Part shown: positions 10,601-56,489 of the stretch, in pieces | Layout of the letters: the number at the start of each line of letters is the position of its first letter | Numbering within the stretch: position 1 is the first letter of the stretch | IMG/VR virus record: IMGVR_UViG_3300021387_000090 | Span: 32,001 to 96,000 of that record | Source of the DNA: a virus | Lineage: Duplodnaviria; Caudoviricetes | DNA: 64,000 nucleotides | Strand: one strand, 5' to 3' | Notes under the pieces: model-generated | What the model was told of the DNA's origin: nothing | The model's database searches: none | Seen by the model: the letters and a program-made list of their open reading frames with translations, nothing else | Position numbers and translations under genes: made by a program

Positions 10601-13600
10601 ACTTTATTGCTGATGCTAGAAATGCTGAAGAAATGGTAAATCGTTATGATCGTAACCAAATTTATGATGAGAATAACAATTTGACCCCTGATAGCGTTGC
10701 AGAAGCTTGTCCTCAATTAAGAGTGATAAAAATTGATTGTCCTCATTTTACTAACGATAAAAAAGATAAAGTAGCAGACACTACCATCGAGTATATCTAT
10801 CGTGATGGTGATCCTGTATTGGATAACTGGATTGCTACTGGTGCTTCGCACAGCGGACAGGGGACAACTAGTAATGAGTATGCTGCTGCTGGACGAAATT
10901 TGGATCTGATAATGAATACAGATACTACGGTGATTACACTTGGTGATGGAACTACAACTGCAAGTAAGATTAGTTTAACTCGTACTTCAGTGCCTGTTAA
11001 CTACTTAAATGTGAAGGTGAATATTGCCAGTTCTGAAAATGCTAACAATGCTTTGTTACAAAAGAGATACGACAGATACTTACCATATGTAAGTGAGCCT
11101 AAAAAAGCAGATCCTAAAGTAAAGAACACGATGGAGTTTTATAACTGTGTAATCTTTGTGCGTGAGAACGATTCTGATCTTACTACTCATAGAGAATATG
11201 ATGATACTGATTGGCATTTTTATGCTATTGGCAATGTTGGTGATTCTAAGAAGACAGATAAAACTCGTGTTGTAGACTCTTCTGACCCTAAAGAATTCTG
11301 TGTGGAAATAATGGATAATACTTTCCCGAATTCGACATTCCCCGGTGGTACAGAAGCCTTAGCAAACTTGGACGCTGACACCTTTAGTGAAAAGACTGGT
11401 GAAACTTATGGTCTTCGGTATGAGTATAAGAATATAACCACCGAAGAACATGAAGCTAATCTTGAAGCTTTTAGAGATTTCTATAGATTTGTAGTTAATT
11501 CAACAGATCAGGAATTCCATGATAATCTTGGAGATTATTTCGTGTTAGATTCTGCTCTTTATTTCTATCTTTATACTCTGCAATGGACAATGATTGATAA
11601 CCGTGCAAAGAACACTTTCTGGTGGAGACATAAATGTGAAGATGGTGAATATAGATTTGAATTCTGGGGATACGATTTTGACTCGGGCCTCGGAATCAAC
11701 AATTCGGGCGAGATGACAATGCCTTATGGCAGAGAAGATATGGATTATCGAACAGAAGGAGATCCTAATTCTGGGTATATCTTTAACGCCGCTGAATCCA
11801 CATTCTTCTGTCGTGTGAGAGATTTGTTCCAGACTGAACTACAAGCCATGTATCTGACTTGTGAATCAAACAATGCTTGGAATCCCGAAAGTATGATTCA
11901 AGAGTTTGATAATTGGCAAGCACAATTCCCTGAAGAATTATGGAGATTAGATATTACCAATAAATATATCAATTCTTATCTTGGAAAGGGTAGATTCTAC
12001 TCTGCTACACCTCGTTTCTTAACTACCATGATGAATGGACGTAAGAAATATCATAGACGGCAGTTTATCAGGGATCAAGTAATGTATATGGCAACTAAAT
12101 GGTATGGTAGTTATGCTACGTCTGATCAGATCATGTTTAGATGTAACACACCCACATCTGCTGTTGTTTCTCCTGATTATACTCTGCATTTGACACCTTA
12201 CGCAGATATGTATTTGTCTGTAATGTTTGGTGCGACTTCTAGAAAACAGGTTCGTGCAAAAGCTGGCATTGAATATACTATTACTTGTCCTCTTACAACG
12301 ATGGATGATACAGCGGTGCTGATTTATGGCGCCTCTAGGATTCAATCTGTGGGTGATTTAAGTACTTGTTATGTACATGATAATGATTTCTCAAAAGCCG
12401 TAAAGCTTCGTTCTTTGACAATTGGTAGTACTATAGAGGGATACAACAATGTATTCTTGACTACTCTTAATTTAGGTAATAATGCGTTATTACAAACTCT
12501 TGACATTAGAAATAATCCTAATCTGACAGGAACTTTAAATCTGTCTGGATGCCCTAGCCTAGAAACTTTACAGGCTACTGGAACAAGTTTGACTGGTGTT
12601 ATATTTGCAGATGGTGGTAAAATTAAGACAGCTTATTTACCTGCAATAAATTCTTTGACAATAAAGAATTTGTTATATTTAACCACTTTGTCATTAGCGG
12701 GGTATAATAATTTGTCAAGGATTGTGGCAGAAAATTGCCCTACTGTTGATCTAATTGCAATTATTACGAACGCCACTGCATTAACAAGATTAAGGGCTAC
12801 ACAGGTTGATTGGACAGTAGTTGACAATTGGTTGAAACCATTATTGAATCTTTCAGGCGTGGATGCGTCTGGTTATGATACAACGAAATCTGTATTAACT
12901 GGTACTGCTCATTTAGCGGCTACAGATACCTTTACTCTGAATGAATATAACACACAATGGCCTGATTTGGTTATTGATGTACCACCTTCAGCAGTATTAC
13001 AAGCCTATACCGTAACCTTTAAGAATCCTGAAATAGATCCTGAAAAAAAGGTTCTTGATGTACAACATATTATTGAAGGTGAGAATGCTGTAGATCCTAT
13101 TACTCGTGCGGTTAATCCTATTGCTATTCCCACTATGGTTGTTTATCTGGAAGATGGAAAAACCATTGCTAAAGACTATACATTTACTGGATGGGATTTA
13201 GCATTAACCAATATTAGGAGTAATCGTACAATTACAGCAGTTTATGATGAATCAGAACATCAATATACTGTACGGTTTTTAGATTTGGATAATACTGTAT
13301 TAGAAACTATTCAAGCACCTTACGGCTCTAGTGTTGAATATTCTGGTACAACGCCTGTATACACCAAGCAAGAGTCCTCTTATGTATATAATTTATTTGA
13401 GGGTTGGGATAGTTATCCTATTGTAACAGGAGACATTGATATTAAGGCAAAATATCAAACTTATCGTTATAACGAAGAAGAATTGAATAATATGAGTTTA
13501 TCACAAATGACCCCTACTCAAATTTATTCCATCCTTCAGAACAAACGGAGTGGTGCATTACCAATAACCATTAATTCTAAAGATAGTATTAGTTTTAAGG

Positions 13601-14763
13601 TAGGTATTGATTATGAATATGATAATGTTGAGTCTGTAGAACTCTTCCAAACTGAAAGAACTTTTAACGGCACATCGAATGATTATTATGATACAGAAAT
13701 TGCTTTATTAGATAATGATTCTGATTGGACGTTGGTTATTGATTATAAATGGGATTCTACTGCTGCAAATAATAGCGTTTTATTCCAATGTTATCAAGGC
13801 TATGGTTCTAATGGTTTTAGATTTAGAAATACAAGTGGCTATAAGGTCATTTGGGGAACTAATAATTTATCTGTAGGTGCTGTAAATACTAGAGATATGA
13901 TCGTATTACGACATCTTGCTGGCAATAATACATTGCATATTTATTCTGGTAATCTGCCTAATGAAACTATTTTCTATAATACATTATCTGCGACTCGAAG
14001 CGTAACAACCAATAATGCAACTCTTGTATTTGGGGCTTCTATCGATGATGATGGTGCTGTGAGTTCTTATGCTAAAGGGACTATTTATTCTGCCAAACTT
14101 TATTATGCTGATCTTGGCGATAAAGCTTGTCGAGATATGGTATTATGGCCTAGAGAAACTATTACCGCTGAAATGGCGGGATTTAGAAGATATTACTTGG
14201 CTGATGGTTCTGGTGCAAGAAGCAATATGACTTTCTTAGGTAGTCATTTGCTGTCCAACCCTATGAATGTAATGTCTGGGGGAAGTAATGTGGGTGGATG
14301 GCTTGTTACTCCTAATAGAAGAATTTTAAACAATAGATTCTATAATGCTATTCCTATTTTATGGAGACAGTTAATTAAGCAAGTTCAGATTTCTGCCAAT
14401 ACAGGACACATTGAAACAGCAACTAACGAAACAAATGCGGAAGTAACTACAGGTGCATGTTACATTGCTCTTCCGTCTATTTTATCATTAAATGCTAACT
14501 ATGATCGAATACCATATAACTTGGAAGCGGGTGAGCCTGATGCTTATGGTAATTATACCATCGATTATGTTCTTACCAACGAAAATAGAATGAGATATTA
14601 TCCTGACGGAACTTTAGGAAAATATGCTACAAGATCTGCCATGCCTAATTATAACTATACATGGTTTTATATTGTAGGCACTGATAATTATTATGCCGCT
14701 GGTTCTGAAGATTATTGGTCACCTTCAGGTGATATGGGTATATGTATCGAGTTTTCAATTTAA
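7681..14763 (+). CDS. Giant tail-associated protein: BppU-like N-terminus, CotH-kinase-like core, LRR, B-repeat-like Ig domains, C-terminal CLec/DUF6273-like domain
   Basis: 2360-aa ORF. Contains IDNRAKN...YDFDSGLG (CotH-like), LxxLxLxxNxxL repeats, YTFTGWD/FEGWD B-repeat-like motifs and a terminal YATRSA...GICIEFSI. Confidence 0.7.
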
Positions 14764-19730: not shown

Positions 19731-22700
19731 ATGGCTGATACGACACTTAAAGTACGCATGACTGCAGCAAGAAAAACTGAGTCAGAGTGGAACGTTACTA
19801 CAATCATTCCCAAAGAGAATGAGGTACTTTACACCAAGGGCGGGTTACACGATGGCGAATATAAGATCGGGGATGGAACCCATAGATGGTCTGATCTTGA
19901 TTACATAAAACCATCTTATACTTATCCCGAATTAGAACCATTGATGACCAAAACCTACAATAATGTAATTTGTACGGCAAATTCAGATCCTGCAGGATAT
20001 TTATATTTTATGACCATAAAACCTAATAATTATAATACGGCTTGGACAATAAGATATAGAGTCCATGCTACTATAGCGGGTGTTACTGGTGGATATCAAG
20101 ATTCAGAAGTACTTATAGAAGGAACACGAAACACTTATTTGGCATATAGTACTTATAATGCAGTTAATAATACTTCTTATAGGCCCTATTATTATCATAT
20201 GTATTTTGCCGCTAATGAAACAGGACAAGCAAATAATTATCCTCATCTACTTGGCTTTAGATTTCAATCATCTTATAATCCTGCGACAACGGCAAATTCT
20301 CGTACTATTGTAATTGAAATTTTAGAATATAAAAATTGTACCCTGACTTTTTTAGATACTATGAAGTTATTCGCTGATATGCCGGGGTCTAATTCTACTA
20401 ACTATGGTAATACCAGTAGTGGAGCAAACGCAACTCGTTATAGTTTTGATGGTACGACTCAGGGTTGGACATTTGTTGGAGATAGAAATACTTATCCATA
20501 TTTATTATCAGCTTATTACACAAGACCTTATGCGGGTGTAAATGGTACAAAACAATATAGTTTAGCTATGGAAGATTCTGTTGGGAGGCTTCAAAGTTTT
20601 ACTACTACGCATGGTACAGGAACAAGTAAAGCAAAAAACACACAAGGTTTTAGACTTGGTAGAATGTATTATCTTAATTCTTCTGGCAATTATACGGAAG
20701 GACAACAATTTGGTAATGATGTATCAAGAGTATTCCAATCTGATATGGACTTACGGTATTCAACTAATTGTGGAACAACTCTAACTGCATTTAAGCCTGT
20801 ATATATAGTAGGTACTGTTAACCCTATTACTAATCTATTTTATTTAGATGATACATGGTGGACACAAACATTGCCCACATCTGAAGACGGTAAAATATAT
20901 ATTTATATTGGTTGTCCTTATGATACTTATCGCTTAACTTTTGAAGGTTATCACGATCCTGTTTGGTATAAAGATGGGGCGATAAGACCTTTTTATGGAA
21001 ATACATTAAATGTTGAGCAATTACAGGAAATGAGAGATAGCGTCATAGAAGATTCCACTCCCTATTTATTTAGACCTTCTGCTAATGGGAATAATATCGG
21101 AGATAGAGAATACCCGGAAATTATTGGCGGTACGGTGGCGTGGAATCAGCATGTTACTTTTTCTCAGGCAACTTATACCGAAAAAGGGCTTACAATCAAA
21201 AGAAATGCAGATGGAACTATTGAAATAAGCGGAACAGCAACTGAAGATTGGTACAGCAATATCGGAAATACGGTAACTTCTTTTCTCAACCATAAGATTT
21301 TGATAAAAGGATGCCCGTCGGGAGGTTCTTCTTCGACATATTCAATGCGTGATGGATACACAGCAGGTGACAAATATAAAGATTTTGGCGACGGTAATAT
21401 CGTTGTCGGTAAAGCAAATTTCATCATTCAGATTATAGTGGGAAGAGGAACAGCATTGTCTACACCGATTATCTTTAAACCGCAAGCATTCGACCTCACC
21501 GCCATGTTCGGCACATCCATCGCAGACCAAGCCTACGCAATGGAGCAGGCAACAGCCAAGAGTGGAATTGCATGGCTTAAGTCGATGGGATTTTTTACCG
21601 CAGACTACTACCCGTATGATGCCGGGACGCTGAAGAGCGTGGAGGGGTTGGCATCGCACGATATGATTGGGTTTAATCAGTGGGATGAAGAGTGGGAAAG
21701 CGGATATTATGACGCAAACGGTCAACCTGTGACAAATTCCTTAACCATTCGTTCAAAAAATTACATTGAAGTAATGCCCGACACAGCATATTTTTTTAAA
21801 GCAACAAGCGGAACAAACAACCGAATTTGTTATTTTGACGTAGACAAAAATTTTATTTACAGAACCGATTTGCGTACGCCTGATACCGCATTCACGACTC
21901 CGACTAATTGCCGGTTCGTCATGTTCCATAATGACGGCACAACCTACAGCAACGACATCTGCATCAACCTCTCCGACCCCGCCAAAAACGGTACATACGA
22001 ACCATACGAAAAGCACAGCTACCCTCTCGACAGCACACTCACGCTCCGGGGTATTCCGAAACTGGTTGACGGGAAGTTGCAGCATGATGGGGATAGGTAT
22101 GCGAGTGATGGGACGGTGACGAGAAGGTATGGCGTGGTGGTGTATGACGGATCAGCAGACGAAACATGGGTTTATGAATCCTCAAATAGGCATTTTTACA
22201 TTGGTCTTGACAACGTAAAGCGGTCAAATGACTATGAAAAGTGCATGGTGTCCAACATCAAGGTCGCATCGAAGGCTTATTCGTGGAGTGCTGATGCAGT
22301 CCCGATGGTGTCTGCGTATGGAAACACTTCGGCGTATCCCGGCAAAAACTGGATATATATTAAACCGAACACTGATTCCGTGACAGATGTTGCGACATTT
22401 AGAACATGGCTTTCTGCCAACCCTGTTACGGTTGTCTACGAACTCGCCACCCCCACAACTGAAACAGCACAGCCTTTCCAGTCTCCACAAATTGTAGATG
22501 ATTTCGGGACAGAAGAGTATGTTATCGCTAATACTGTGGATGTACCGATTCCTGTTGGGCATAATACGAAATACGAATTAAAAACAGGTATCACAACTCA
22601 TGGCGAAGTGGTTGACGCTGGAGTACTGAATTCTTTTTATACTATGATTAAAAATGAATTTGTTTCTACTAAGGGTGACATTATGACTGGCCCTTTGACA

Positions 22701-25103
22701 TTAGATGCAGATCCCACTTTAGCAATGCAACCTGCAACTAAAAAATATGTAGATCAAAAAATAGGGACTGCATATGAGTCAAAAGATGCTGAACAAAATG
22801 GAACCGAAGTATCTCTCGTAACGACTGGTGAAAAATATAATTGGAATCAAAAGACAACTACAAGTTTTACTCCTACATTAAGTACTGGAACTAAAATCGG
22901 GACAATTACTATTAATGGAACTGCAACAGACTTATATTGTCAGACAAATACAAACATATTAACTGGTGTGAAAGGTAGTGCTGAATCTACTTATAGAACT
23001 GGCAATGTGAATTTAACGCCTGTGAATATTGGTGCGCTTGCGCTTACTGGTGGGACGCTGACAGGAAGTGTTACTATTGGGCAAACTACTGATACTGCTG
23101 TAAGAACTATGGCAGTGCAGAATTCGCTTAGTAATGTAGCATTAGCTGTCGGTGGGGATGGAAAACACGGTATTTTTTCGAACACTAAGGGCGATTGGCT
23201 GCTGTATGCAACGAAAGACGCAAATAGTACTAATTCAACACTTTATGTACCAAGACCACTTAGCGTTTCTGGACTTACTAGTGTAAGTAACAATGTCATA
23301 GCTACAGCAAGCGACACGAGTGAGCGGTATTTTCGAGCGGTTAACAGTAACGGATCTATCGAACTAAACGCATCAGCCGGGAACAAGGGCGTGTATGATC
23401 GTAGCGGTGGAAGATGGATCATGTATCTAGCTACCAATAGTGCGGCAGACACGGCGGTAATAATACCGAGAGGTTTGCAAGTTGGCGAAGCCGGGATAAA
23501 TGGGTACATTGAACTGTACCATGCTACCCCCTATATTGATTTTCATTATGGTAGAAGTACCGCAGATTATACAACAAGACTCATTGAAAATGCATCTGGT
23601 GTACTGACAATTGAAGGAAGGCTTTATAATTCAAGAGTACCGGGTTCTTGGGTTGCTGCAATAAAAACCGCAGCATTAACAGTTAATATGGCTTCAACTA
23701 CAAGCACAAGTGCAGCTATAAGTGGTATGACCATAAGAACTAAAAATGGTTATATTAGTTTAGATACTATTCCAACTACTGATGATAATTTATATATACA
23801 TTATATTTCCACCGCTAATTATAATGCAGGAACTAATACAGTTTCTGCGGCGAAAGTAAGTTGTAATATTACAGGTCATGCCGATGGCGATCTTCCTTTA
23901 ACAGGTGGGTCATTGACAGGAAACCTTTTTGTCAGCGCTTCAGACACCAGTGAGCGACAAGTTAGCATATCTAATTCTTTAGGACACGTATATCTCGATG
24001 TAAGTACCTCTGGTAATCATGGTTTATATTCTGGCACAAAAGGCGGTTGGATCATTTATTGTACTAAGGATGCTAGCTCAACGAATTCATGGGCATACAT
24101 ACCTAGAGCATTAAATGTATCAGGTCATATACATTCTAGTAATGAAATTCATTCTGGTGGTAAATCCACATCTCAGGACGGTCACGCTGGTGCAATTTTA
24201 AGTGGCGGTGGTCATTTATATTTACAACAAGGCGCTACGGGGAGCAATATCTACTTCATTTGGGGGGCTGGTAAAACAATAACGTCAAGAATTTACGAAT
24301 CTGCAAGTGGGACCCTTACAGCAAGCGGAAATTGGGATGTTGGGGGAAAAATACATGCAACTGGTAATATTACTTCCACAGCTCATGTATCTTGCGGTGG
24401 TAAAGAAAGTGGAGGAGATGGAAATCCTGGTTGTTTTATGAATAATGGTGGTTCTTTCTTTATTACTGGGCCAGCAAATAGCGGAGGCACAATTTTCTTC
24501 CACTATAATAAAGCTACCTCAAATACATCCAAAATATATGAATCATCATCTGGAACTATTAAAGTTGATGCATATTTATGGGGGAAGAACTCTAGTGGTG
24601 GATCGCATATAGTTGTTACTACAGTAGATACAGATAATCAGAAAGTAGCGTACTTGTCTACTAATACAACCGCATTGTATGTAAATGCAAGACATGGTGG
24701 TTCTTCTTATGCTAATAAGAGTGTCACCCTTTCTTCCTCTGATGTTCGTTTAAAAACCAATATCGCAGATTCTACTATCAATGCTTTAGACGTTATAAAC
24801 AAGATCCGTATCAGAGAATTTGATTGGACAGATGAACGTGAAGATAAGCATCAAGTCATTGGTATGGTTGCTGATGAGATCGAGAAACTGGATAAGAAGT
24901 TTGCGGTCGGTGGTGGATATACTGAAGATGGGTGCATGAATATCAAGAGTGTAGATACTTTCTATTTGACTGGGTATTTGACAAAAGGTATTCAGGAATT
25001 GAATGGAAAGGTTGACGGTCACGATGATAGGATTGCCGCATTAGAGAGGGAAAATAAAGAACTGCGGAAAGAGATTGAAGAATTGAAAAAAGAAATAGCT
25101 TAA
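19731..25103 (+). CDS. Large mosaic tail fibre / receptor-binding protein with C-terminal S74 chaperone
   Basis: 1790 aa. Mtd_N-like KIGDG..W..L.Y start, internal duplicated modules (ASDTSER x2, RIYESASGT/KIYESSSGT), terminal SDVRLK..FDW..GMVADE and coiled coil. Confidence 0.85.
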   Translation: MADTTLKVRMTAARKTESEWNVTTIIPKENEVLYTKGGLHDGEYKIGDGTHRWSDLDYIKPSYTYPELEPLMTKTYNNVICTANSDPAGYLYFMTIKPNNYNTAWTIRYRVHATIAGVTGGYQDSEVLIEGTRNTYLAYSTYNAVNNTSYRPYYYHMYFAANETGQANNYPHLLGFRFQSSYNPATTANSRTIVIEILEYKNCTLTFLDTMKLFADMPGSNSTNYGNTSSGANATRYSFDGTTQGWTFVGDRNTYPYLLSAYYTRPYAGVNGTKQYSLAMEDSVGRLQSFTTTHGTGTSKAKNTQGFRLGRMYYLNSSGNYTEGQQFGNDVSRVFQSDMDLRYSTNCGTTLTAFKPVYIVGTVNPITNLFYLDDTWWTQTLPTSEDGKIYIYIGCPYDTYRLTFEGYHDPVWYKDGAIRPFYGNTLNVEQLQEMRDSVIEDSTPYLFRPSANGNNIGDREYPEIIGGTVAWNQHVTFSQATYTEKGLTIKRNADGTIEISGTATEDWYSNIGNTVTSFLNHKILIKGCPSGGSSSTYSMRDGYTAGDKYKDFGDGNIVVGKANFIIQIIVGRGTALSTPIIFKPQAFDLTAMFGTSIADQAYAMEQATAKSGIAWLKSMGFFTADYYPYDAGTLKSVEGLASHDMIGFNQWDEEWESGYYDANGQPVTNSLTIRSKNYIEVMPDTAYFFKATSGTNNRICYFDVDKNFIYRTDLRTPDTAFTTPTNCRFVMFHNDGTTYSNDICINLSDPAKNGTYEPYEKHSYPLDSTLTLRGIPKLVDGKLQHDGDRYASDGTVTRRYGVVVYDGSADETWVYESSNRHFYIGLDNVKRSNDYEKCMVSNIKVASKAYSWSADAVPMVSAYGNTSAYPGKNWIYIKPNTDSVTDVATFRTWLSANPVTVVYELATPTTETAQPFQSPQIVDDFGTEEYVIANTVDVPIPVGHNTKYELKTGITTHGEVVDAGVLNSFYTMIKNEFVSTKGDIMTGPLTLDADPTLAMQPATKKYVDQKIGTAYESKDAEQNGTEVSLVTTGEKYNWNQKTTTSFTPTLSTGTKIGTITINGTATDLYCQTNTNILTGVKGSAESTYRTGNVNLTPVNIGALALTGGTLTGSVTIGQTTDTAVRTMAVQNSLSNVALAVGGDGKHGIFSNTKGDWLLYATKDANSTNSTLYVPRPLSVSGLTSVSNNVIATASDTSERYFRAVNSNGSIELNASAGNKGVYDRSGGRWIMYLATNSAADTAVIIPRGLQVGEAGINGYIELYHATPYIDFHYGRSTADYTTRLIENASGVLTIEGRLYNSRVPGSWVAAIKTAALTVNMASTTSTSAAISGMTIRTKNGYISLDTIPTTDDNLYIHYISTANYNAGTNTVSAAKVSCNITGHADGDLPLTGGSLTGNLFVSASDTSERQVSISNSLGHVYLDVSTSGNHGLYSGTKGGWIIYCTKDASSTNSWAYIPRALNVSGHIHSSNEIHSGGKSTSQDGHAGAILSGGGHLYLQQGATGSNIYFIWGAGKTITSRIYESASGTLTASGNWDVGGKIHATGNITSTAHVSCGGKESGGDGNPGCFMNNGGSFFITGPANSGGTIFFHYNKATSNTSKIYESSSGTIKVDAYLWGKNSSGGSHIVVTTVDTDNQKVAYLSTNTTALYVNARHGGSSYANKSVTLSSSDVRLKTNIADSTINALDVINKIRIREFDWTDEREDKHQVIGMVADEIEKLDKKFAVGGGYTEDGCMNIKSVDTFYLTGYLTKGIQELNGKVDGHDDRIAALERENKELRKEIEELKKEIA

Positions 25104-30223: not shown

Positions 30224-31480
30224 TTAATAATTTATGGCGTTACCAATGGTGTCTTTAGCTTCGATACTCTCAGTAACATTAAAGCGATAGAATTTTTTCG
30301 TTGTTTCTATATCTGTGTGCCCCATTTGGTTAATGATCAGAGTCTCATCTACATGATTTTGAAATAATGTAGAAGCATAGGTTTTTCGAGCCTTATGCAT
30401 GGCTCTTGGTTCAATGCCAACCGCTACACAGATTCGCTTTAATTTGTTGCTGAGAGTATCTGCTTTTATACGATTTCCGTCTTTACTAGTAAAGACATAT
30501 TCAGTATCAGGATTGATTTCTCGCAGACGTTTCATAATCTGTTGAGCCTGTGAAGTAAGAATTACATCTCTTACACCAGCTTTTGTTTTAGGGACATCTC
30601 GTACTTGATAATGATATCCATCTTCATCTCTAAAACACTCTTCAGTACGATGGACATACACAGAACCATCAAATACATCTTCCCACTTCAAAGCAACAAT
30701 TTCACCGATCCTCATACCAGTATAAAAACCTAGCAGAATACCATAGCTAATCACTGACTCAGCATGAACATCAATATATCTCTTGATTTTTTCGATCTCT
30801 TCTTTATTAAAGATTTGTTTTTTTAACACAGGATCTGCAAAATATGAACGAAGATTCAAGCTTTTAAAAAACAATTCTGGAGAAAAATTTAATTTGTGAG
30901 ATCTTCCATAATAGTTTAAAGCACCCCGAAGAATCGTTCTTAATCCACTATAAGCTTTTGCAGTAAGATCAAGAGTATCGATCCTCTCCAAAATAAAATC
31001 TTCTAATTCAATCTCTGTCAAAGTCCCAACGTCCTTATTAAACATTTCAGTGTCATCAAAAAACCTGTGAAAATCAAGAGTGTATCGATTTGCTGTTTGC
31101 AGTTTAAATTTATTACGCTTTTTTCCCATTTGAATTTTATAATCAATCCATTCAGGAATGAGTTCACCAATAATAGTTTTGGTACGGCGCTTATAAAATT
31201 CAATAATTAAATCTTCTAATTCTTCTTTAGTTTTTTTTCGTTTCTTCACCCTCTTTTCTGATCCATCATCGCTCGGCAAATAAGTCATCCAACATCCTGT
31301 TGAACTATTTGTAATAGCGTACTTGTGCATTGAGAGATAATATTCTCTTTCAGCTTTTTCCATAATTTCAGTAGCCTTGGCATCTGTAATTATACCATTT
31401 TTTGAGGATAAAATCAAATCATTCTTTAATTCTCCCAATAGATTTTTTGTCTCGTCTCTAGCATTAAAATAATCGTTCAA
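30224..31480 (-). CDS. int: Tyrosine integrase
   Basis: GMRIGE (R), PKT (K), HKAR (HxxR), MGH and TKKFY (Y) catalytic residues. Confidence 0.93.
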   Translation of the reverse strand: MNDYFNARDETKNLLGELKNDLILSSKNGIITDAKATEIMEKAEREYYLSMHKYAITNSSTGCWMTYLPSDDGSEKRVKKRKKTKEELEDLIIEFYKRRTKTIIGELIPEWIDYKIQMGKKRNKFKLQTANRYTLDFHRFFDDTEMFNKDVGTLTEIELEDFILERIDTLDLTAKAYSGLRTILRGALNYYGRSHKLNFSPELFFKSLNLRSYFADPVLKKQIFNKEEIEKIKRYIDVHAESVISYGILLGFYTGMRIGEIVALKWEDVFDGSVYVHRTEECFRDEDGYHYQVRDVPKTKAGVRDVILTSQAQQIMKRLREINPDTEYVFTSKDGNRIKADTLSNKLKRICVAVGIEPRAMHKARKTYASTLFQNHVDETLIINQMGHTDIETTKKFYRFNVTESIEAKDTIGNAINY

Positions 31481-33428: not shown

Positions 33429-33914
33429 TTAACTAATTTGTTCAGCATACTGATTATCAGACGCTAAGTTAATGCCAAGAACTTCATCGTAATGGGGATT
33501 TTGATTAGGGATATAACGTCCGTATTTTATAATGATATTGTCAAAATTCTTTAATAAATTGATATAGTCAAATTTTTTCAATTCTTCTTTAGTATATCCT
33601 GTATAAATCACAACATCATCATTACAATGATACTGATTTCTCAGCCAAATCAAAAAATTATTTAACTCTCCAAAAGAATCAATTGGTTCTAAGCCTTGAC
33701 AAATTATAGCGTCTGTTATTGGATTATTTAAATATCTTTTAATGATCGTTTCACATGATACATCAATAATTTTTTCTTTTAACAAAGGACTGTTTTGACA
33801 TATAGCTTGCCCATAATCTTTGTCACATTTTAATGAGCAAAACGGAAACTCAATTATCATAGATGGTTTTTTATAATTGATAAAATCCTCATCAATAATA
33901 TTTATTATTCTCAC
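33429..33914 (-). CDS. nrdG: Anaerobic ribonucleotide reductase activase (GTG start overlapping nrdD stop)
   Basis: CSLKC...CQN radical SAM variant, GLEP, IYTGY, IKYGRY, LASDNQ; adjacent to nrdD. Confidence 0.85.
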   Translation of the reverse strand: MRIINIIDEDFINYKKPSMIIEFPFCSLKCDKDYGQAICQNSPLLKEKIIDVSCETIIKRYLNNPITDAIICQGLEPIDSFGELNNFLIWLRNQYHCNDDVVIYTGYTKEELKKFDYINLLKNFDNIIIKYGRYIPNQNPHYDEVLGINLASDNQYAEQIS

Positions 33915-36811
33915 TGCATAATTCCGTCCTTTGAGAGAACATTCATCCATTTACGCTTATCAAATTCTTTACGTCTAATTTTTTGATAACCTGAAACAGG
34001 TGTATAGAAACCGACTACGCGACTATAGGTGTCGGCAATAGATTTGCCACATACTGGGCAAGTCTTTTCACTAATAAAAGCGTGACCCTCTTCACATACA
34101 CTAATTTTGGTTGTAAATGCAAAGTAGATCACCCCTTGAGAAGCTACATAATTAAGCATCTCCCATGCAGTTTCTTCATTAGGGAATCTATTTTCAATAT
34201 CAATATGGGCGATACATCCACCCCCACATTTAGCATCAAATAAAGATCCTAATCTACATTTTTCTTGAATAGTGCATTTTTCCATTAAGGGGATCCATTG
34301 ATTGGAATAAATAAAGTATTTATCATTTTCAAACAATAAATTATCTGCCTGACAAATTACTCCCGCACAATTTTCAGCAGGAATCATTTCAATATTAAAA
34401 GTAAAATCACATTCAAAATTATCTTTTACTTCATTCATTGTATCTAAGATTTGTGTGGTAAATTCAACAGCTTCGTCTGAATAAGATTTACATCCAAACT
34501 CATCTGTATTAATTAAACCGAACATATCCATTACTTCATACATTCCAATACCGCCAATGGTACAGAACTGTTTATCTAATTCAACGGCCCCATCTTGATA
34601 ATTAGGAAGTAATCCCTTTTCAATATTTCGTTTTAAAATATAACGCATAGAAGACAACGCTTTGCAATCAAGAAGAACCCTCTTCTTTAGAATATCAATA
34701 TACTTCTTTTTATTAAGGTCACTCTCATATGCAATTCTTACTAAATTAATTGTACTTACTCTGCAAGACCCTACAGATAACGCAGTACCACCAATACTAT
34801 TAATAAAAGCATCGAGTTTTGTTGTATCACTAAGTAATCTACAACAATTACTTAATACACCAACATTGTCACTAACAAAGAAATTAGAATCTGACCACTT
34901 AATATTATGTGCTGAACACCATTTGGCAAAATCTTCATCAACGAATTTACCATTTTGGAACAATAAGCTATATGTTAATCCTTTATGTTCATCATGAGTC
35001 GTTAATTCATGACCGTTTATAACAAACCGCTCTATGTCACCATAGAGAGCAGACTATATCATATTCTTTAATTCTATTACCGATTAAAGAACCCCAGCAC
35101 TTCCATCCACTTGGATGTACTCTACTCAGTTATTTACTTAATATTTCTATTAAGAAATCTTTTCGATAGTCGTTGCGCTTTCCCATCTATATGGGCTTAG
35201 TTCATGATTGTCTGTATAATGTATTTTCCAATGGCAGTTATGGCAAAGAACTACCAAATTGGATTCGTCCATCAGATCTTTATTATTAACTATTTGATCA
35301 TAAACGGAATTAATATCTCCATCATAATCATTTTTAATAAAATCTTCAAAAAGTAATTTAAAAGGCTTAATATGATGAGTTTCTAAATTTCCTCCTCTTT
35401 TACCACAACATTGACAAGTATAATTTTTTTCACGAATCAAACGTTTTGATATTGTTTTAAAAATTCCTCTTGCTACACGTTTTTCATCTTCGTAACCTTT
35501 ATAATTAGGATTATTATCTCCTGTAAATCGACCTATTAAAGATTCACTAATTTTATTTCTTTGTTCAATATCATCTATTTTCCCGTGTCTATCCTTTATT
35601 CCTTGTCTATTAAGAAGAATAGTAACATCTGATCTTGAGACACCTAACCTCTCAGCTATTTCGTAATCATATAAACCTTGATTATGTAGTTCCAAAACTT
35701 GCTGCCTACGATTCATTTCATATTTATGTAAGCCTAATTGATTAAGTTTTTTACCAACCGTACTTTTTGTATATCCTGTAATATCACTTATTTCTTGATA
35801 TGATAAATTTTGATTAAATAAATCAATTAATACCTCATCTGCCACTTTTTTAATTTTTATTACCTATCTTTCTTTGCCATTTTATAAATACAGACTTCCC
35901 ATGAATTCACTGGGTTTTCATAATAAATCACTTTATTATGCCGCTATATAATTAACGGGATATGTAAACATCTGAATACTTCTAGTTTCATCTACCACTC
36001 TCATGAATTCTTTTTGCGCTTCAATTAAATCTTCAATATGATCTATCGCCATTTCCCCGTCAGGAAAAACGATTCCACCAAAAAGAGATTCAAGGTATGG
36101 TCTGTCAAAAATTGAAATATTTGTAAAAGCACTCTGATCAATTCTCAAGAACGGTTGGTTTAGTCTAAAAATTAATTTTTGGCACTGCTGTCTCCAGTAA
36201 TATTTCGGATCCTTAATATAATATCCAGTTTGAACATCTTTATACCAAAACCACCAGCCCCAAATTAACACATTAGGCATACCCACAGCGCCAGATTGCC
36301 TATTTGAGAGGAATGAAACGAATTCAATAACGTCATCTATATATGTCGTTAAATGTTTAGGCGGCTCATTGTTGTAATTGTTTAAAAAGAATAATCCTTC
36401 GGTTGCTAATCTCGTAAAATCATCTGCCCAACAATAGGGAAAATAACTAGCTGTTGTACTATCATTTAAATAAAACGCTCGACTAAACTCTGCTTCAAGC
36501 CATTGTTTGGCTGTGCGTAATCCCCATTGTTTTTTAATCGTTGAGAAAATTTTATTTAACCCAAATAATTTATCTTCACTCTTACCTTTTTCAGTCATAA
36601 AGCTACGAATATCTTTATTTCTTGCATTAGCATTTGGATCAATACTCTTATCTGCAAGCGCACCTTTATCAACAAAGTTATCAATAAATTCAGAAAAATC
36701 TAATTGACTAGGATGAAGACCATTAATATATTCAAAGTCTTCACCATATTTTTTCTTTAAATCCTCTAAACATCTTTCGAAATCTTTTGTAAGTTTTAAT
36801 TCAATATCCAT
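33911..36811 (-). CDS. nrdD: Class III anaerobic ribonucleotide reductase, two exons: join(36811..35955, 34979..33911), 641 aa
   Basis: Splicing restores MFTYPV-LTYSLLFQ in frame. SNCCRL, IPAE, CPVCG zinc site and YSRVVGFY glycyl-radical loop present. Confidence 0.9.
34980..35954 (-). mobile_element. Group I intron (975 nt) in nrdD
   Basis: Exon CCGU pairs with intron GCGG (P1, U-G at the splice site). Terminal omega-G at 34980. GCAACGACTA and GATATAGTC P7 elements. P9-like CTCTATG-GTGA-CATAGAG. Confidence 0.9.
35150..35845 (-). CDS. Intron-encoded HNH homing endonuclease with N-terminal HTH domains
   Basis: Two HTH-like segments, GDNNPNYKG, CQCCG, ETHHIKP, NLVVLCHNCH; ORF end (ESATTIE) overlaps the intron core. 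Confidence 0.9.
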   Translation of the reverse strand: MADEVLIDLFNQNLSYQEISDITGYTKSTVGKKLNQLGLHKYEMNRRQQVLELHNQGLYDYEIAERLGVSRSDVTILLNRQGIKDRHGKIDDIEQRNKISESLIGRFTGDNNPNYKGYEDEKRVARGIFKTISKRLIREKNYTCQCCGKRGGNLETHHIKPFKLLFEDFIKNDYDGDINSVYDQIVNNKDLMDESNLVVLCHNCHWKIHYTDNHELSPYRWESATTIEKIS

Positions 36812-46408: not shown

Positions 46409-47341
46409 TTAAAGAAAATTTTTGACATATTGAAACATCGCCTGAACATCATTATCTAATTCGTCAATGCTATATCTTTTATCCAAAGGCTCCGTAGAAC
46501 TTTTCGCAAAAACATTATTAACCATATCAATATAAAAAGTCATGGTTCCGTCTTCGCCTTGAAAGAAGACATCCCAGATTTGTTTTGGTAAATGATCTTT
46601 TACATGAAGCTGTTCTATTGCGAGACAATCGAACGAAACTATTTTAAAATTATCAAACATTAAAGATAAGTTACGTTCAAGCATACCAATATTCCAATCA
46701 ACATCTCTGTCATATTGTGAATAATATTCATTTCCTCTACGAAGTTTCTTGTATCCTAAAATCAAAATTTTAAGATCTTTACCATGTTCCATTAAAACTT
46801 GAAGTTGATGTTCATTAAGAACTCCTGCAATTACATGAACAACTAAATTGGGGAATTCTTTAATTGCTGTAAAAAATTCTTCAGATGGATCTATAAGAGA
46901 TACACCAATTCCTCTAATCCTATGATGCCTTACAAGATAACGAATTAAATTAATGTTATCCATAAAGTGCTTTTGATTTACAGTAATATTGACAAATACG
47001 TGTTGGTAAGACAATTTATCCAAAAAGTCCAACAAATAAGGATGAGTAAAAATATTACCACCACCAAGAGCGATTTCTGTGTATGGTTTTAGTGTTTTAA
47101 CCCATTCAGCGGTCATAATATTGCCATGTTTTCCATTAGTCGTACTTCCTTCATGGCACATTTTGCATCCCATGTCACAACAATCAGTAATTTTAACGTC
47201 CAGATTTTCGGGATATTCAAAATCGAATTTATCATCCAACGAATATCGAATAACCGAACCATCATTAAAACGCTTTACAAAGACATTACCATTCGTATAC
47301 TCTGCAATTATATTTCTTATCACGCTCATATTTAATTCCAC
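46409..47341 (-). CDS. Radical SAM protein (start possibly ATG 47329)
   Basis: CDMGCKMC (CxxxCxxC), EIALGGGN, NITVN. Confidence 0.9.
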   Translation of the reverse strand: MELNMSVIRNIIAEYTNGNVFVKRFNDGSVIRYSLDDKFDFEYPENLDVKITDCCDMGCKMCHEGSTTNGKHGNIMTAEWVKTLKPYTEIALGGGNIFTHPYLLDFLDKLSYQHVFVNITVNQKHFMDNINLIRYLVRHHRIRGIGVSLIDPSEEFFTAIKEFPNLVVHVIAGVLNEHQLQVLMEHGKDLKILILGYKKLRRGNEYYSQYDRDVDWNIGMLERNLSLMFDNFKIVSFDCLAIEQLHVKDHLPKQIWDVFFQGEDGTMTFYIDMVNNVFAKSSTEPLDKRYSIDELDNDVQAMFQYVKNFL

Positions 47342-47889
47342 TTCTCAAAAATTTCGTAATCCTTTTCAGGAGTATTTTCTCTAAAATAAGCAATATCATC
47401 CATGTCACTATTGTCATTCGAAGTAAGGATCACACCATCGCCAAATAGATATCTTAAGAGTCTCTTTTCGTTACCAATAATGGCCTTAACAAAATTTATT
47501 AATTCATAGCCATGATCAATATATCCATTAGGCCAACCCGATGCGTCATAATCATCAGTATCAAATACAGCCTCAACACCATATTTACCCAACGTATCAT
47601 AGATCCAATTAATAGCTTCTTCTCTAAGTTTTAGATTTTCTTTATTTTCTTTGTTATCGTATTTGCCAAAAAATCCTCCCCCTGGATAAACTTCAAACAA
47701 TGCCTGATAGAGATAGGAGGCTTTTGAATCTACACCAAAATATACAATATGTTCCCAGCCATATTCACCATGATTAAAGTGGACAGTTAAAGGATTCAAA
47801 TCTTTTTCAATATTTTTCTTTGTGATTGAAATAGCGTGAACAGAACTACTATTAGTCTCCCATACACCCTTACGAATTGTTAATTTCAT
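47332..47889 (-). CDS. ETNSSS-motif protein A (185 aa)
   Basis: N-terminal MKLTIRKGVWETNSSSVHA; also EYGWE, GYIDH and NDN. Confidence 0.8.
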   Translation of the reverse strand: MKLTIRKGVWETNSSSVHAISITKKNIEKDLNPLTVHFNHGEYGWEHIVYFGVDSKASYLYQALFEVYPGGGFFGKYDNKENKENLKLREEAINWIYDTLGKYGVEAVFDTDDYDASGWPNGYIDHGYELINFVKAIIGNEKRLLRYLFGDGVILTSNDNSDMDDIAYFRENTPEKDYEIFEKWN

Positions 47890-47901
47890 TTTGTTCTCCT
47901 T

Positions 47902-48192
47902 TTAATAATCATAGCCAGAATAACCAAATACTTTTATTTCATCGCCAGATGGGGATATAAAATCTTCTTCAAAACCTTCATATCTTTCAATATAATCATA
48001 ATAATCATCAACAGATAAATAACGATCTTCATCTTCTTGTTCAAGTTTATTGGTTACAATTTTATCATCCCAAATATCATAATATGCTTCACCGTTCAAC
48101 CATTTATCATAATCAGATTTGTTACAAATACACAACGCATGAACAGAACTACTGTTAGTTTCCCAAACTCCATTTCGTATAGTAATCTTCAT
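47902..48192 (-). CDS. ETNSSS-motif protein B (96 aa)
   Basis: N-terminal MKITIRNGVWETNSSSVHA; acidic body ending FGYSGYDY. Confidence 0.8.
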   Translation of the reverse strand: MKITIRNGVWETNSSSVHALCICNKSDYDKWLNGEAYYDIWDDKIVTNKLEQEDEDRYLSVDDYYDYIERYEGFEEDFISPSGDEIKVFGYSGYDY

Positions 48193-48193
48193 A

Positions 48194-49237
48194 TTATTTC
48201 TCCTTAATAAGATAGTCGTTATTCAAAACTTTCATGGAGAGCCAACCAGAAATTTCTGTAGAATATACATGATTACTAATTGGACGAATTACAATTCCCT
48301 CTTTCTGCTGTCCAGATGAATACTTGCCCTTTGCTCTTTCAAGTAAATCTTCTACTGTATCATAAGAAAAGAATAAACTCTCTTCTTCAACAGGAACCAT
48401 ATTAAGGTCACAGTCATTACACAGCTTCTGAATCTCATATAGGCTATATCTTCTATCATTGACAAAATCAAGAACAGTAAATACATACCATTCTGGCCTC
48501 TTAAGTCCAAGACGGTTGCCCTGAATTCCGGGACCGCACCATTCTCCTTGAACAGCAATGTTCCGATACCCATATTTTTCTAAGGATTCAAAAATATTGT
48601 GTTCATGAGCATATTTCCACATTGCGCACTTATCGTCATCAGCCAATTCATTATTGCGTGAACATACACCATTATGATCGTAATAGTTATACATAGTAAC
48701 AGGACTACCGTCCATTTTAGTAGTAATGTAATAACCTTCACAAGATTTAAATTCGTCAATAAGTCTCGGATAAGATTGCACACGAAGTTCGTCTGTCTTA
48801 GGGACTCCAATGGAAGTGGGAAAGTCACTAATCACGGTTCCAGCAGCACTTGTATATTCTTCAATTTCCCACTTCTTAACTCCAAGAATATCAGTAACGT
48901 CATCACCAAGGAAATAATCACCTTCAGGCAGAATAGACATTGGCATAACCAATCCCTGAGAAATCTCGCCACGAAGCTTAACCGTTTTAAGTCTGAATCC
49001 CTCACCCATTAAATCGGTCTTTTTATAACTGCTATTCCGAAGGAATTCAAATTTCTCTTCTACAGGCAGAAAACTATCTACTTCAAAATATACACACCAA
49101 TCACCAACATGAAATTGTCCCTTCTGACAAACAACTTGCCATCCCAATACATGAACGAGTTCAATTCTATCAGCATCTTTAATAGGCGTTACATCATGTA
49201 CATACTGAATTGAGGCCAGCTTTCTTTTCGTACCCAT
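48194..49237 (-). CDS. ATP-dependent RNA ligase, DRB0094/Rnl2-like family
   Basis: RKLASIQ..ADRIE N-terminus, KLRGEISQGL, KMDG (adenylated Lys), QGEWCGPGIQGN, EGIV. Confidence 0.9.
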   Translation of the reverse strand: MGTKRKLASIQYVHDVTPIKDADRIELVHVLGWQVVCQKGQFHVGDWCVYFEVDSFLPVEEKFEFLRNSSYKKTDLMGEGFRLKTVKLRGEISQGLVMPMSILPEGDYFLGDDVTDILGVKKWEIEEYTSAAGTVISDFPTSIGVPKTDELRVQSYPRLIDEFKSCEGYYITTKMDGSPVTMYNYYDHNGVCSRNNELADDDKCAMWKYAHEHNIFESLEKYGYRNIAVQGEWCGPGIQGNRLGLKRPEWYVFTVLDFVNDRRYSLYEIQKLCNDCDLNMVPVEEESLFFSYDTVEDLLERAKGKYSSGQQKEGIVIRPISNHVYSTEISGWLSMKVLNNDYLIKEK

Positions 49238-49246
49238 CTTTTCTCC

Positions 49247-50104
49247 TTAATTTTCTTTGCTCTTCTGAATTGCCTTTGCAATAATATCAATCTGCTCCTG
49301 ATTCTGCTGTTCTTTACGCTTCTCTCTACGTTTTTTATTTTTAGCTTTTCTACGAGCAATAATAGCTTTACGCTCTTCTTCTTCGGCTTTCTTTTTATCT
49401 TCTTCTTTTAGCCAATTATTGTAAGCTTTAATGGCACGATCAAATTCTTTATTTGACTTATTAAATCTATGAATATATGCCTGTGCAATATATTCAATCC
49501 CTTCTATAGAATAATCCAAATTATAGTGCTTATTATTATATTTTGCCCACGCAAGAGCAAGTGCATATTTTAAATCAAATACATCAGGCTCTTTACATAC
49601 CTGCTTATAAATATGTGGTGTACCATCATAAATAGTGATTTCCACAACTCTGTTAGGAACAAGCACATTAATATTTGCAATAAAAGGCTCTGTACGAAGT
49701 GCGAGTGGTGAAAAATCCTTCGGCAAAGTATTCATTATGTTTTTATCGACACCTTTATGTTCTGTTTTATGTTCTGTTTTATATTCTGTATATTCTGGCG
49801 GTTTTATTGCAAATGTACAACATTTATCAGAATAAAAATATCGATTGGGTTCTGCATCTTTGGGTTCTGCATCTTGCGCTACAATAGATTTTATCCAGCC
49901 AGAACCAGTAAGTGTTCCTATTGTAGCTGTGGTGGTTGTTAAAGGTGTAATATTAAATTCATTGTTCGGATTAATTGTATTAGTAGTGAAATTGCCAATA
50001 TTTGAATATGCGTTAGTAATTGAAGATTCCATATCCTTACCTCTCTTTTCTACAAAATTCTTTAAACCATTCAAGCATTCTATCTTCTTCTGTATAAAAT
50101 CCAT
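49247..50104 (-). CDS. Hypothetical protein with basic coiled-coil C-terminus (likely start 50032)
   Basis: Long ORF with short tandem repeats (DAEP x2, KTEH x2). Confidence 0.6.
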   Translation of the reverse strand: MDFIQKKIECLNGLKNFVEKRGKDMESSITNAYSNIGNFTTNTINPNNEFNITPLTTTTATIGTLTGSGWIKSIVAQDAEPKDAEPNRYFYSDKCCTFAIKPPEYTEYKTEHKTEHKGVDKNIMNTLPKDFSPLALRTEPFIANINVLVPNRVVEITIYDGTPHIYKQVCKEPDVFDLKYALALAWAKYNNKHYNLDYSIEGIEYIAQAYIHRFNKSNKEFDRAIKAYNNWLKEEDKKKAEEEERKAIIARRKAKNKKRREKRKEQQNQEQIDIIAKAIQKSKEN

Positions 50105-50240: not shown

Positions 50241-51350
50241 TTATACTCCTGTTATGTTCATTGAACTCATCATTTTTAAGATGTTTATGTTTTGACGAAT
50301 ATTGTCAAACAATCTATTAATATCACCCTTATCCACTTCATCAGGAAAACTAATTCTGATTGTTCTAGCAGCTTCTTCATCGCTCAAACCAATAGCTTTT
50401 AGTACATGACTGGGTTCAGAATTATACGAATTACAAGCAGAACCTGCGGATACATACTCGCCCTGATCATGAAGCAACCCAATTAACTGTTGACCATCAA
50501 TTGGTTCTTTAATTGTAAGACTTAAAATATTATAAAGCCTCTGTGTAGGATGACCGTTTACAGTTGCAAAATCTTGACAATGTTCTACAGCGTATTCATA
50601 TACTTCTTTGAAATAATTCTGTTTTGAATAATCAATTAATTCAACTGCTTTAGCCAAACCCATAATATAAGGTACATTTTCTGTACCACCACGCATATTT
50701 CGTTCTTGTGAACCATATATTAGTGGACTTAGGTATTCCTGCGAATCTTCTTTTATATATATAAATCCAATTCCTTTTGGCGCTCCAATTTTATGGCCTG
50801 AAACGGACAAAGAGTCAACGCCTAATTCCTTTACATCTATCGGAATTTTTCCATACGCTTGAACAGCATCTGTATGGAAAAAAATCTGTCTATCATGTGC
50901 ATACTTTACCAATGTTTTAATATCTTGAACTGTACCAATTTCATTATTTGCCATAATTACGGCAATAATAGCAGAATCTAGGTATACATCATCTAACCAA
51001 CTAGCATATGAAATAACACCAAATTGATCATTGTATAATGTTTTACTAGAATCTCTTACGCCCACGTCAATCGAATGATGTTCCAAACATGATGTTGCAA
51101 CCATAACATCATAATCGTTAGAAACTACCCATGAATTCCCTTCACTACCACCAGAGGTAAAAAAGATCTCCTCTGGTTTTGCATTAATACTTTTTGCAAT
51201 TATTTCTCTGGCCCTTTCAACGTCTCTACGAATTTCTCTGGCAGGTTCATAGATTGCTGAAGGGTTATACCACTTATCTGTAAAATAAGGCATCATAGCC
51301 TTTAATACTTCAGGCTTCACAGGTGTGGTTGCCGCTGTATCCCAATACAT
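50241..51350 (-). CDS. iscS: Cysteine desulfurase (IscS/NifS family)
   Basis: DTAATT, FTSGGSE, NNEIG, DAVQ, SGHKIGAPKG (PLP Lys), SAGSAC (catalytic Cys). Confidence 0.92.
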   Translation of the reverse strand: MYWDTAATTPVKPEVLKAMMPYFTDKWYNPSAIYEPAREIRRDVERAREIIAKSINAKPEEIFFTSGGSEGNSWVVSNDYDVMVATSCLEHHSIDVGVRDSSKTLYNDQFGVISYASWLDDVYLDSAIIAVIMANNEIGTVQDIKTLVKYAHDRQIFFHTDAVQAYGKIPIDVKELGVDSLSVSGHKIGAPKGIGFIYIKEDSQEYLSPLIYGSQERNMRGGTENVPYIMGLAKAVELIDYSKQNYFKEVYEYAVEHCQDFATVNGHPTQRLYNILSLTIKEPIDGQQLIGLLHDQGEYVSAGSACNSYNSEPSHVLKAIGLSDEEAARTIRISFPDEVDKGDINRLFDNIRQNINILKMMSSMNITGV

Positions 51351-55358: not shown

Positions 55359-56489
55359 TTATTTAATACTCTCTCGCTCTTTCCCAGTAGAGTAAAGAGT
55401 TTGAATTGAATTTAAATTATCATACATATAATCAGGAACAGCAATCTCATTCTTATGAGTAATCACAACTTTAAATTCTCGATCAAATGAATCTTTTCTT
55501 AATCTCTCTAAGAAATTATAATCCATTTGTCCATATCTAATTGTTCCCTGAAATTCATTAGGAATATTTGTTTCATCATAAAGCCCTATACTTAATTGCT
55601 TATCTTCTTTAAAATTAGGATCAATACCATGCCTTGTCAAATAAGTTCTTGTAACATAATAAGGTTCTGTATAAAAACCAAGTTTTTGTTCAAGCACTCG
55701 GACATTATCGAGTCCTGTGTTTGATGGAGTAGTATGGACGTTATCAGGATCGTCATTTAATAACAACCCTTGACCGTTTTCAAAAATCACTTCATCGTAT
55801 TTTTTAATGATCTCTGCATCGCACCACATAGTATGATTTAACATAAAATAGCAATCTTGAAGATATTTTTCAATAATAGCATCATTCTCTGTATAAAGGA
55901 TTTTACTCCAGTTTAAAATAACTTGATTGGATATTTCTTGATTTTCTTTATATCGTTTAAAATTATAATCAAAATAATTCTTTCTAATTTTAATCCAATC
56001 ACAAAACGACTTAATATCACCCCATGTGCAAACAGAAAAATCATTATATAATTTTACTGTTTGCCAAATACCCATGCCACAACTACCGTGTCGCTTTTCA
56101 CCACGACTTTCTTCTAGCATTTGATTTAAATACATCTCATACGGAGTGGTAATGCGACATTTTTTATCAATATAAACGTGAGAATAAAATCCCATTTTAT
56201 TTAATTCTTTATATTCCTGTACAAAAACCATAGGGTTTATAATAAAGAATTCTGAAAGATAAGTATCTGCACCTATAAAAGTACCAGACCCAAAATGACG
56301 AAAAGCATGTTTGATACCTTCAACTAAGGAGACGGTATGAGAGCGTTGTGGGCCACCATTATTTAAAACTACTAATGTCTTATAACCTTTTTGAATTGCT
56401 TGATTAGCAAGATAATCTGTAACTAACCCTTTTCCTTCGTCACCCGCATTCATCCCTACTACAACCTTTGATCTCACATCTATTCCCAT
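55359..56489 (-). CDS. Divergent adenylosuccinate synthetase (PurA-like)
   Basis: GDEGKG P-loop, HTV, HGSCGMG, FENGQGLLL, TPSNTG, RTYLTRHG, TN..N.FQG..RYG. Confidence 0.85.
   Translation of the reverse strand: MGIDVRSKVVVGMNAGDEGKGLVTDYLANQAIQKGYKTLVVLNNGGPQRSHTVSLVEGIKHAFRHFGSGTFIGADTYLSEFFIINPMVFVQEYKELNKMGFYSHVYIDKKCRITTPYEMYLNQMLEESRGEKRHGSCGMGIWQTVKLYNDFSVCTWGDIKSFCDWIKIRKNYFDYNFKRYKENQEISNQVILNWSKILYTENDAIIEKYLQDCYFMLNHTMWCDAEIIKKYDEVIFENGQGLLLNDDPDNVHTTPSNTGLDNVRVLEQKLGFYTEPYYVTRTYLTRHGIDPNFKEDKQLSIGLYDETNIPNEFQGTIRYGQMDYNFLERLRKDSFDREFKVVITHKNEIAVPDYMYDNLNSIQTLYSTGKERESIK

Follow-up and report, generated by a model that had tools for sequence, protein, structure and literature searches.

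A radical S-adenosylmethionine (SAM) enzyme family and its N-terminally tagged partner proteins form a two-part system that is firmly supported across phage genomes. We describe it from a stretch of 64,000 nucleotides, hereafter the window, which comprises bases 32001-96000 of the IMG/VR virus genome IMGVR_UViG_3300021387_000090. The complete genome of 154,699 bp has direct terminal repeats, and the label "phage", given to the window in a preliminary description made from the letters alone, is correct for a 154.7-kb virus genome of this kind. On the minus strand, the genes of two tagged proteins, A and B, lie upstream of a divergent radical SAM enzyme with a CxxxCxxC motif (rSAM), whose open reading frame (ORF) directly follows them, in agreement with that description. 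None of the parts of this module carries a functional annotation, and the trio recurs in hundreds of phages.

A and B have a common start, MK(L/I)TIR(K/N)GVWETNSSSVHA, in which 17 of the 19 residues are identical. Ten of these 17 identical residues use synonymous codons and seven codons are the same, with 44 of 57 nucleotides matching. The tag had been described with just these 17 residues and ten synonymous codons, on proteins of 185 and 96 aa, and every detail proved right; the proposed selection at the protein level is likewise supported. Past residue 19 the two sequences diverge, and their suspected lack of relationship was borne out, as hhalign, run on tag-stripped profiles (75 sequences for A, 62 for B), gave a probability of 0.5%. 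The sole piece that they have in common beyond the tag is a short aromatic-Gly-aromatic motif, which reads GEFGW in A and FGxYGY in B. Considering both this lack of profile similarity and the unstructured residues 1-15 in the model of A, no ordinary fold shared by both proteins accounts for the tag. The full genome contains no tags other than those of A and B.

The tag follows the consensus M-K-x-x-I-R-x-G-V-(F/W)-E-T-N-S-S-S-x-H, invariably at a distance of 9-10 residues from the Met. Among 420 unique proteins with the tag, the arginine at position -4 was conserved in 100%, the phenylalanine in 94% and the histidine at position +8 in 99%. Because R(-4) and H(+8) lay outside the search pattern, in which the Phe site was only loosely constrained (F/W/Y/L/I/M/V/C), their conservation indicates that the sharing of the tag goes far beyond chance. 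The bodies behind the tag are diverse. The 424 unique tagged proteins fell into 24 unrelated body clusters, namely A with 206 members, B with 145, C with 20, D with 8 and a remainder of small clusters, many of which repeat the EYxxWxxGE piece that follows the tag strand in B. Tagged proteins span 92-405 aa with folded or conserved bodies, most of them small, acidic, fast-evolving and mutually unrelated, and ten representatives of the families other than A and B had no Pfam domain.

A short, strictly N-terminal peptide on unrelated small proteins could serve in sorting, for instance by targeting them to the capsid, with a prohead-protease cut after V-F-E, the more so as its h-x-E presumably resembles T4-type prohead protease sites. 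We consider this far-fetched. Conservation runs well beyond the putative cut site, to TNSSSxH, the genes are found in a replication block and not in a head block, and neither the tight linkage nor the fusion to rSAM, both presented below, would have a place in such a scheme.

The linkage between tag and rSAM that the preliminary description called for holds across genomes in both directions. Starting from the tag, 77 of 82 phage loci contained an rSAM gene, nearly always within 1.5 kb and on the same strand. The other five comprise two tags at a contig end, two in records that are 37-59% complete, and one whose rSAM gene, interrupted by an insert, is 23 kb away. Starting from the enzyme, all 80 loci contained one to three tags, always upstream on the same strand and within 1 kb in 65 of 70. 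A prokaryotic set with one genome per species, including metagenome-assembled genomes (MAGs), yielded 151 occurrences of the tag pattern, mostly in gut and rumen MAGs and additionally in two cultured Lachnospiraceae. Here, 41 of the 43 loci with full flanks had an rSAM gene, and up to nine tags were present per locus. The window itself shows the same arrangement, in which the RxGxFETNSSSxH tag stands at a distance of 9-10 residues from the Met and a member of the rSAM family is its neighbour on the same strand.

Several named phages carry the pair. By tblastn against GenBank phages, A and rSAM were found in an identical set of 24 records, 15 from Lak megaphages and nine from Microcystis phages similar to Ma-LMM01. 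The tagged gp130 of Ma-LMM01 is encoded 0.4 kb upstream of its rSAM, gp128, and in Lak-A1 (TAG read as Q) the rSAM gene is followed by a row of five tagged genes, with orthologues of both A and B among them. In Rhodothermus phage RM378 and Thermus phage phiYS40, the rSAM homologue is a distant one, and next to it are proteins with a degenerate tag, xTNSSS(S/A), which start with MKAFIRFGLSTNSSSSHS and MRRLKEVRLTSMTNSSSAS, respectively. TNSSS alone is common to all tag variants; the His persists in RM378 and in the Salmonella phage Arash and is absent from phiYS40.

The enzyme of the window has 310 aa if translated from the GTG at 47341 and 306 aa from the ATG at 47329; the latter, 2 nt past the stop of A, is most likely the start. 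It is a divergent member of its superfamily, matching PF04055 with 21.8 bits (E 2.4e-4), under the Pfam gathering threshold of 29.5, and matching phrog_16999, "Fe-S oxidoreductase", at 1.1e-38. The family is large, with 2497 representative homologues at E<=1e-3 (50% clustering), of which 580 reach E<=1e-30. Across 34 homologues, C55, C59 and C62 of the CxxxCxxC motif are the sole invariant cysteines, next to an invariant GGG motif, LGYK and FDNLA, and the C239 of the window enzyme is Asn in most homologues. The cysteine motif of a C-terminal auxiliary cluster of the SPASM/Twitch type is absent from these 34 sequences. As there is no conserved Cys outside CxxxCxxC, the enzyme has neither a SPASM/Twitch cluster nor a thiol hydrogen donor.

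Against PDB sequences, the rSAM profile gave weak matches to the cluster-binding segment only. The fold was therefore judged on the AlphaFold model of the metagenomic homologue P0158, which in its rSAM part shares 45% identity with the enzyme of the window. This model shows a partial TIM barrel of the radical SAM type, with 12 radical SAM chains of the PDB at E<=1e-3. Foldseek placed it nearest to SkfB (E 3.4e-5), SuiB bound to SuiA (5e-5) and CteB (9e-5), with TM scores of 0.31-0.45, followed by DesII, AbmM, BtrN, EpeE and ChlB. PADLOC gave a weak pVip match for rSAM and no match for A or B. An activase of the anaerobic ribonucleotide reductase NrdD was ruled out, as the NrdG3 match had an E value of 0.003 and 17.4 bits compared with a cut-off of 151.7, and the window encodes NrdD and a weak NrdG-like gene elsewhere. 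Some rSAM homologues contain intein-like inserts, located just after CxxxCxxC in P0183 and just before GGG in P0149, and in one phage (loci L245/L246, genome of L014) the rSAM gene is split by a 1.4-kb insert.

Protein A has 754 homologues, none of them with a Pfam domain. The residues R6, E11-S16, H18, F38, G44, W45, GYIDH and NDN are invariant in the family. The AlphaFold2 model of A is confident, with a predicted local distance difference test (pLDDT) score of 88.9 and a predicted TM score of 0.87, and it had no fold match in the PDB (best Foldseek E 0.19; best VIA Z 3.1). A search of the ESM Atlas retrieved only clusters of viral hypothetical proteins and, as a weak lead from structure, a Tad2-like cluster (TM 0.58/0.43). 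Neither Pfam nor the PDB fold searches produced a Tad2 match. B has an isoelectric point of 4.1, with 23 Asp and Glu and 11 Tyr residues; 25 homologues were found in a word-indexed search and 145 unique members in the fetched loci.

Natural fusions add weight to the connection between tag and rSAM. The metagenomic homologues P0158, P0161 and P0227 each combine the tag, an A-like domain and rSAM in a single chain, and P0220 has the reverse order, with rSAM first and an internal RRGVFETNSSGTHS later. The N-terminal domains of the fusions are true homologues of A, with alignments of up to 170 residues. A search for further fusions with residues 1-230 of P0158 returned P0161 only. In the phage collection, the sole tag-A-rSAM fusion is gp146c of the cultured Salmonella phage Arash (L249:5452-6882), annotated as "methyltransferase", with the tag at residue 12, GYGW at 37, IDH at 98, CxxxCxxC at 202, GGG at 243 and LGYK at 350. 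In the model of P0158, the rSAM part reached a pLDDT of 84-98. Tag residues 1-10 were ordered as well (pLDDT 88, with a strand at E2-5), compared with a pLDDT of 53 for residues 1-10 of free A, where residues 1-15 are coil. The rest of the A part was modelled poorly (35-79) because the alignment is shallow beyond residue 70. We read the model as the first tag strand docking on the rSAM domain, where its strand partner is presumed.

The tag might instead be an intrinsic element of each protein, such as a metal- or ligand-binding loop or a site of pyruvoyl-type serine self-processing, with rSAM acting in the same pathway and leaving the tag untouched. Catalytic or metal-binding roles are indeed typical of residues such as the invariant E, T, N, S, S, S and H, and the aromatic-Gly-aromatic motif common to A and B could pack on the tag. 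This idea is nevertheless quite improbable to us. The tag is found on at least 24 unrelated bodies, it forms a low-confidence coil in the model of free A, and in the models its first ten residues are ordered only with rSAM present. Moreover, it is difficult to account for a linkage of 95-100% to one enzyme family, and for the fusions, unless tag and enzyme interact directly.

We favour a module of one enzyme and its clients, in which rSAM docks on the tag of the client and probably modifies it; our confidence in this reading as a whole is evenly balanced. Its parts differ in strength. A direct contact between tag and enzyme is very likely, while a covalent modification within TNSSSxH is a tentative proposal that falls somewhat short of even confidence. 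The proposal of a post-translational modification system in the preliminary description is upheld as far as the unrelated bodies, the linkage and the fusions are concerned; that the tag is covalently changed, or that a catalytic residue is created, is still an inference. Mechanistically, rSAM would recognize the invariant N-terminal peptide of the co-encoded A and B and, in other phages, of as many as nine proteins of this kind. The tag would dock through its first residues (h-K-h-x-h-R), as a beta strand, and bring TNSSSxH to the [4Fe-4S]/SAM site, where the 5'-deoxyadenosyl radical would most likely abstract a hydrogen from a Thr, Asn or Ser of the tag. The outcome would be a covalent change on the tag, for example an oxidation, a cross-link or an epimerisation. 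The matured clients would presumably act early in infection, within the replication, nucleotide and RNA-repair block.

Several points weigh against this enzyme-and-clients reading. Where known systems depend on a leader, conservation usually marks the handle and not the modified site, and it is subunits, more typically than an enzyme and its substrate, that occur as fusions. The docking read from the P0158 model involves a presumed strand partner and a poorly modelled A domain. The N-terminal hairpin of rSAM is missing in the enzymes of RM378 and phiYS40 and, for this reason, cannot be a universal docking site. Judging by the conserved residues, the lack of an auxiliary iron-sulphur cluster and of a fourth conserved Cys argues against simple copies of the chemistry of anSME, sactisynthase or PoyD, and the invariant polar motifs of A (GYIDH, NDN) suggest that A may be an enzyme in its own right.

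The surroundings of the module were counted over 83 loci, in which ten of the 25 commonest neighbour clusters were annotated. It sits in a block of replication, nucleotide and RNA-repair genes, and no neighbour is obligatory. The commonest is an AAA_33/KTI12-like P-loop kinase (33 of 83 loci), a protein of about 300 aa encoded directly upstream of the module in many phages (for example L013:6494-7438), which may be a polynucleotide kinase acting with the RNA ligase. A cysteine desulfurase is present in 22 loci, a dCMP deaminase in 19, an RNA ligase in 15 and a deoxyribosyltransferase-like protein in 14. The RNA ligase, frequent and not obligatory, is also annotated near rSAM in RM378 and in Arash, where it lies 0.4 kb downstream of gp146c. 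The cysteine desulfurase had been reported 2 kb upstream of the module in the window, and both this position and its identity (by PF00266) were confirmed; it is, however, only a loose companion of the module and possibly supplies iron-sulphur clusters for rSAM. No protease or transporter was found among the 25 commonest clusters, of which the ten mentioned are annotated. In one phage group, two further weak Radical_SAM-like genes (L032:14152-14883 and L032:15246-16259; 14 loci each) follow about 5-6 kb downstream.

Such nucleotide and RNA-repair neighbours (kinase, dCMP deaminase, RNA ligase and deoxyribosyltransferase-like protein) would also suit the main rival of the enzyme-and-clients reading. 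According to it, the tagged proteins are interchangeable subunits or adaptors of rSAM, whose tag contributes to a composite active site or brings in a ligand, and the substrate is a nucleotide, a nucleic acid or a small molecule. The natural A-rSAM fusions, the own invariant polar motifs of A (GEFGW, GYIDH, NDN) in a confident novel fold, and an enzyme without auxiliary cluster all agree with this. Still, up to nine different tagged proteins accompany one rSAM, their small, acidic, fast-evolving and unrelated bodies suit clients better than subunits, and the nearest folds of the enzyme are peptide maturases. On these grounds we hold the adaptor role to be unlikely.

Among known systems, the enzyme-and-clients module resembles the anaerobic sulfatase maturases anSME and AtsB, in which one radical SAM enzyme serves several whole folded proteins through a short invariant Ser-containing motif near the N-terminus, and the modification creates a catalytic residue. 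However, anSME contains a SPASM domain and, with it, two auxiliary clusters instead of just three conserved Cys, and its client motif is C/S-x-P/A-x-R instead of RxGVFETNSSSxH. The clients here, in addition, are not sulfatases and belong to no Pfam family, and A has no fold match in the PDB. Maturases of peptides that are made by the ribosome and then modified post-translationally (RiPPs; SuiB-SuiA, SkfB, CteB, ChlB) are the best structural matches of the rSAM domain, and there, too, one enzyme acts on several precursors with a conserved N-terminal piece, which binds as a beta strand. They differ in carrying SPASM/Twitch clusters and an RRE domain, and RiPP systems involve short peptides with a variable core, along with protease and exporter genes. 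The clients of the module have 92-405 aa, with conservation at the extreme N-terminus, and are encoded in a context of phage replication genes. The glycyl-radical activases NrdG and PflA are similar as small radical SAM enzymes without auxiliary clusters that act on a whole-protein partner, yet the clients here lack a glycyl-radical motif, and the phage has a separate NrdD and NrdG-like gene. Other rSAM/SPASM peptide systems were described by Kaur et al. 2020 (PMC7159879); the ETNSSS-tag module is not among them. In the literature on ETNSSS/TNSSS tags with radical SAM enzymes, on phage radical SAM and on Ma-LMM01, we found no description of the module or its chemistry.

In the window, the minus-strand order is a 285-aa protein, the RNA ligase, B, A and the CxxxCxxC protein (Table 1). 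These five genes are separated by 1-12 nt or overlap, and the stop of the RNA ligase lies 1 nt ahead of the start of B. The 285-aa protein (49247-50104), between the cysteine desulfurase and the RNA ligase, has no family and a Lys/Glu-rich C-terminus, and was found elsewhere only in the closest relative (locus L003). A megablast of the region against GenBank phages had zero matches, and a scan for promoters and terminators showed no signal exceeding that of shuffled sequences.

Table 1. Module genes and their annotated neighbours in the window (positions counted within the window).
Feature	Position	Strand	Characteristics
Divergent radical SAM enzyme (rSAM)	46409..47341	-	CxxxCxxC, GGG SAM-binding motif
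Tagged protein A, 185 aa	47332..47889	-	N-terminal tag and folded domain with invariant GEFGW, GYIDH, NDN
Tag of A, MKLTIRKGVWETNSSSVHA	47833..47889	-	First 19 codons of A
Tagged protein B, 96 aa	47902..48192	-	Tag, strand, SDYDKWLNGE piece, acidic Tyr-rich middle, C-terminal FGYSGY
Tag of B, MKITIRNGVWETNSSSVHA	48136..48192	-	First 19 codons of B
RNA ligase (PHA02142 OB-fold and RNA_ligase)	48194..49237	-	PF21189 5e-35, PF09414 8e-24, phrog_968 1.7e-73
NifS/IscS-type cysteine desulfurase	50241..51350	-	PF00266 E 1.8e-56; NifS 7e-92

Further features were observed elsewhere in the window. On the minus strand, at 55359-56489, a 376-aa homologue of adenylosuccinate synthetase is encoded, which matches a PurZ-like phage family with the annotation "2-aminooxy adenylosuccinate synthetase" (phrog_1211 4e-50, PF00709 1e-26). 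The phage may replace adenine by 2-aminoadenine; a scan of neighbours identified neither DatZ nor MazZ as a partner. The anaerobic ribonucleotide reductase NrdD (33429-36811 region, minus strand) is split into ORFs at 35936-36811 and 33911-34963. They are separated by an ORF of 231 aa (35150-35845) with an HNH-like piece of the IscB type, probably a homing-endonuclease insertion, and the weak NrdG-like gene (33429-33950) follows. A tyrosine-integrase-like gene (30224-31480, minus strand; phrog_1, 1.3e-46) is located where the coding strand and the GC skew of the genome switch. Two giant ORFs on the plus strand encode 2360 aa (7681-14763) and 1790 aa (19731-25103), the second ending in a receptor-binding piece of the PblB type, and the G+C content of the 18-25 kb stretch is raised to 0.38-0.42, compared with about 0.33.

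The module is widespread, from Lak megaphages, Microcystis cyanophages and phages of thermophiles to gut and rumen phages and one Salmonella phage. In its most far-reaching form, which is possible though doubtful, rSAM would modify a Thr, Asn or Ser of TNSSSxH covalently in a novel way, without an auxiliary cluster. This would define a new virus-encoded class of maturation, switching on a large and fast-diversifying set of effectors, possibly for counter-defence or host takeover. The fusion in Arash and the pairs in Ma-LMM01, RM378 and phiYS40 make the system experimentally tractable. Even if the tag serves only for docking, enzyme and client would still recognize each other as a compact natural pair. 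The pairing of one enzyme with an invariant 18-residue tag, carried by dozens of unrelated proteins, gives testable access to new radical chemistry and to a hidden layer of protein regulation in phages.

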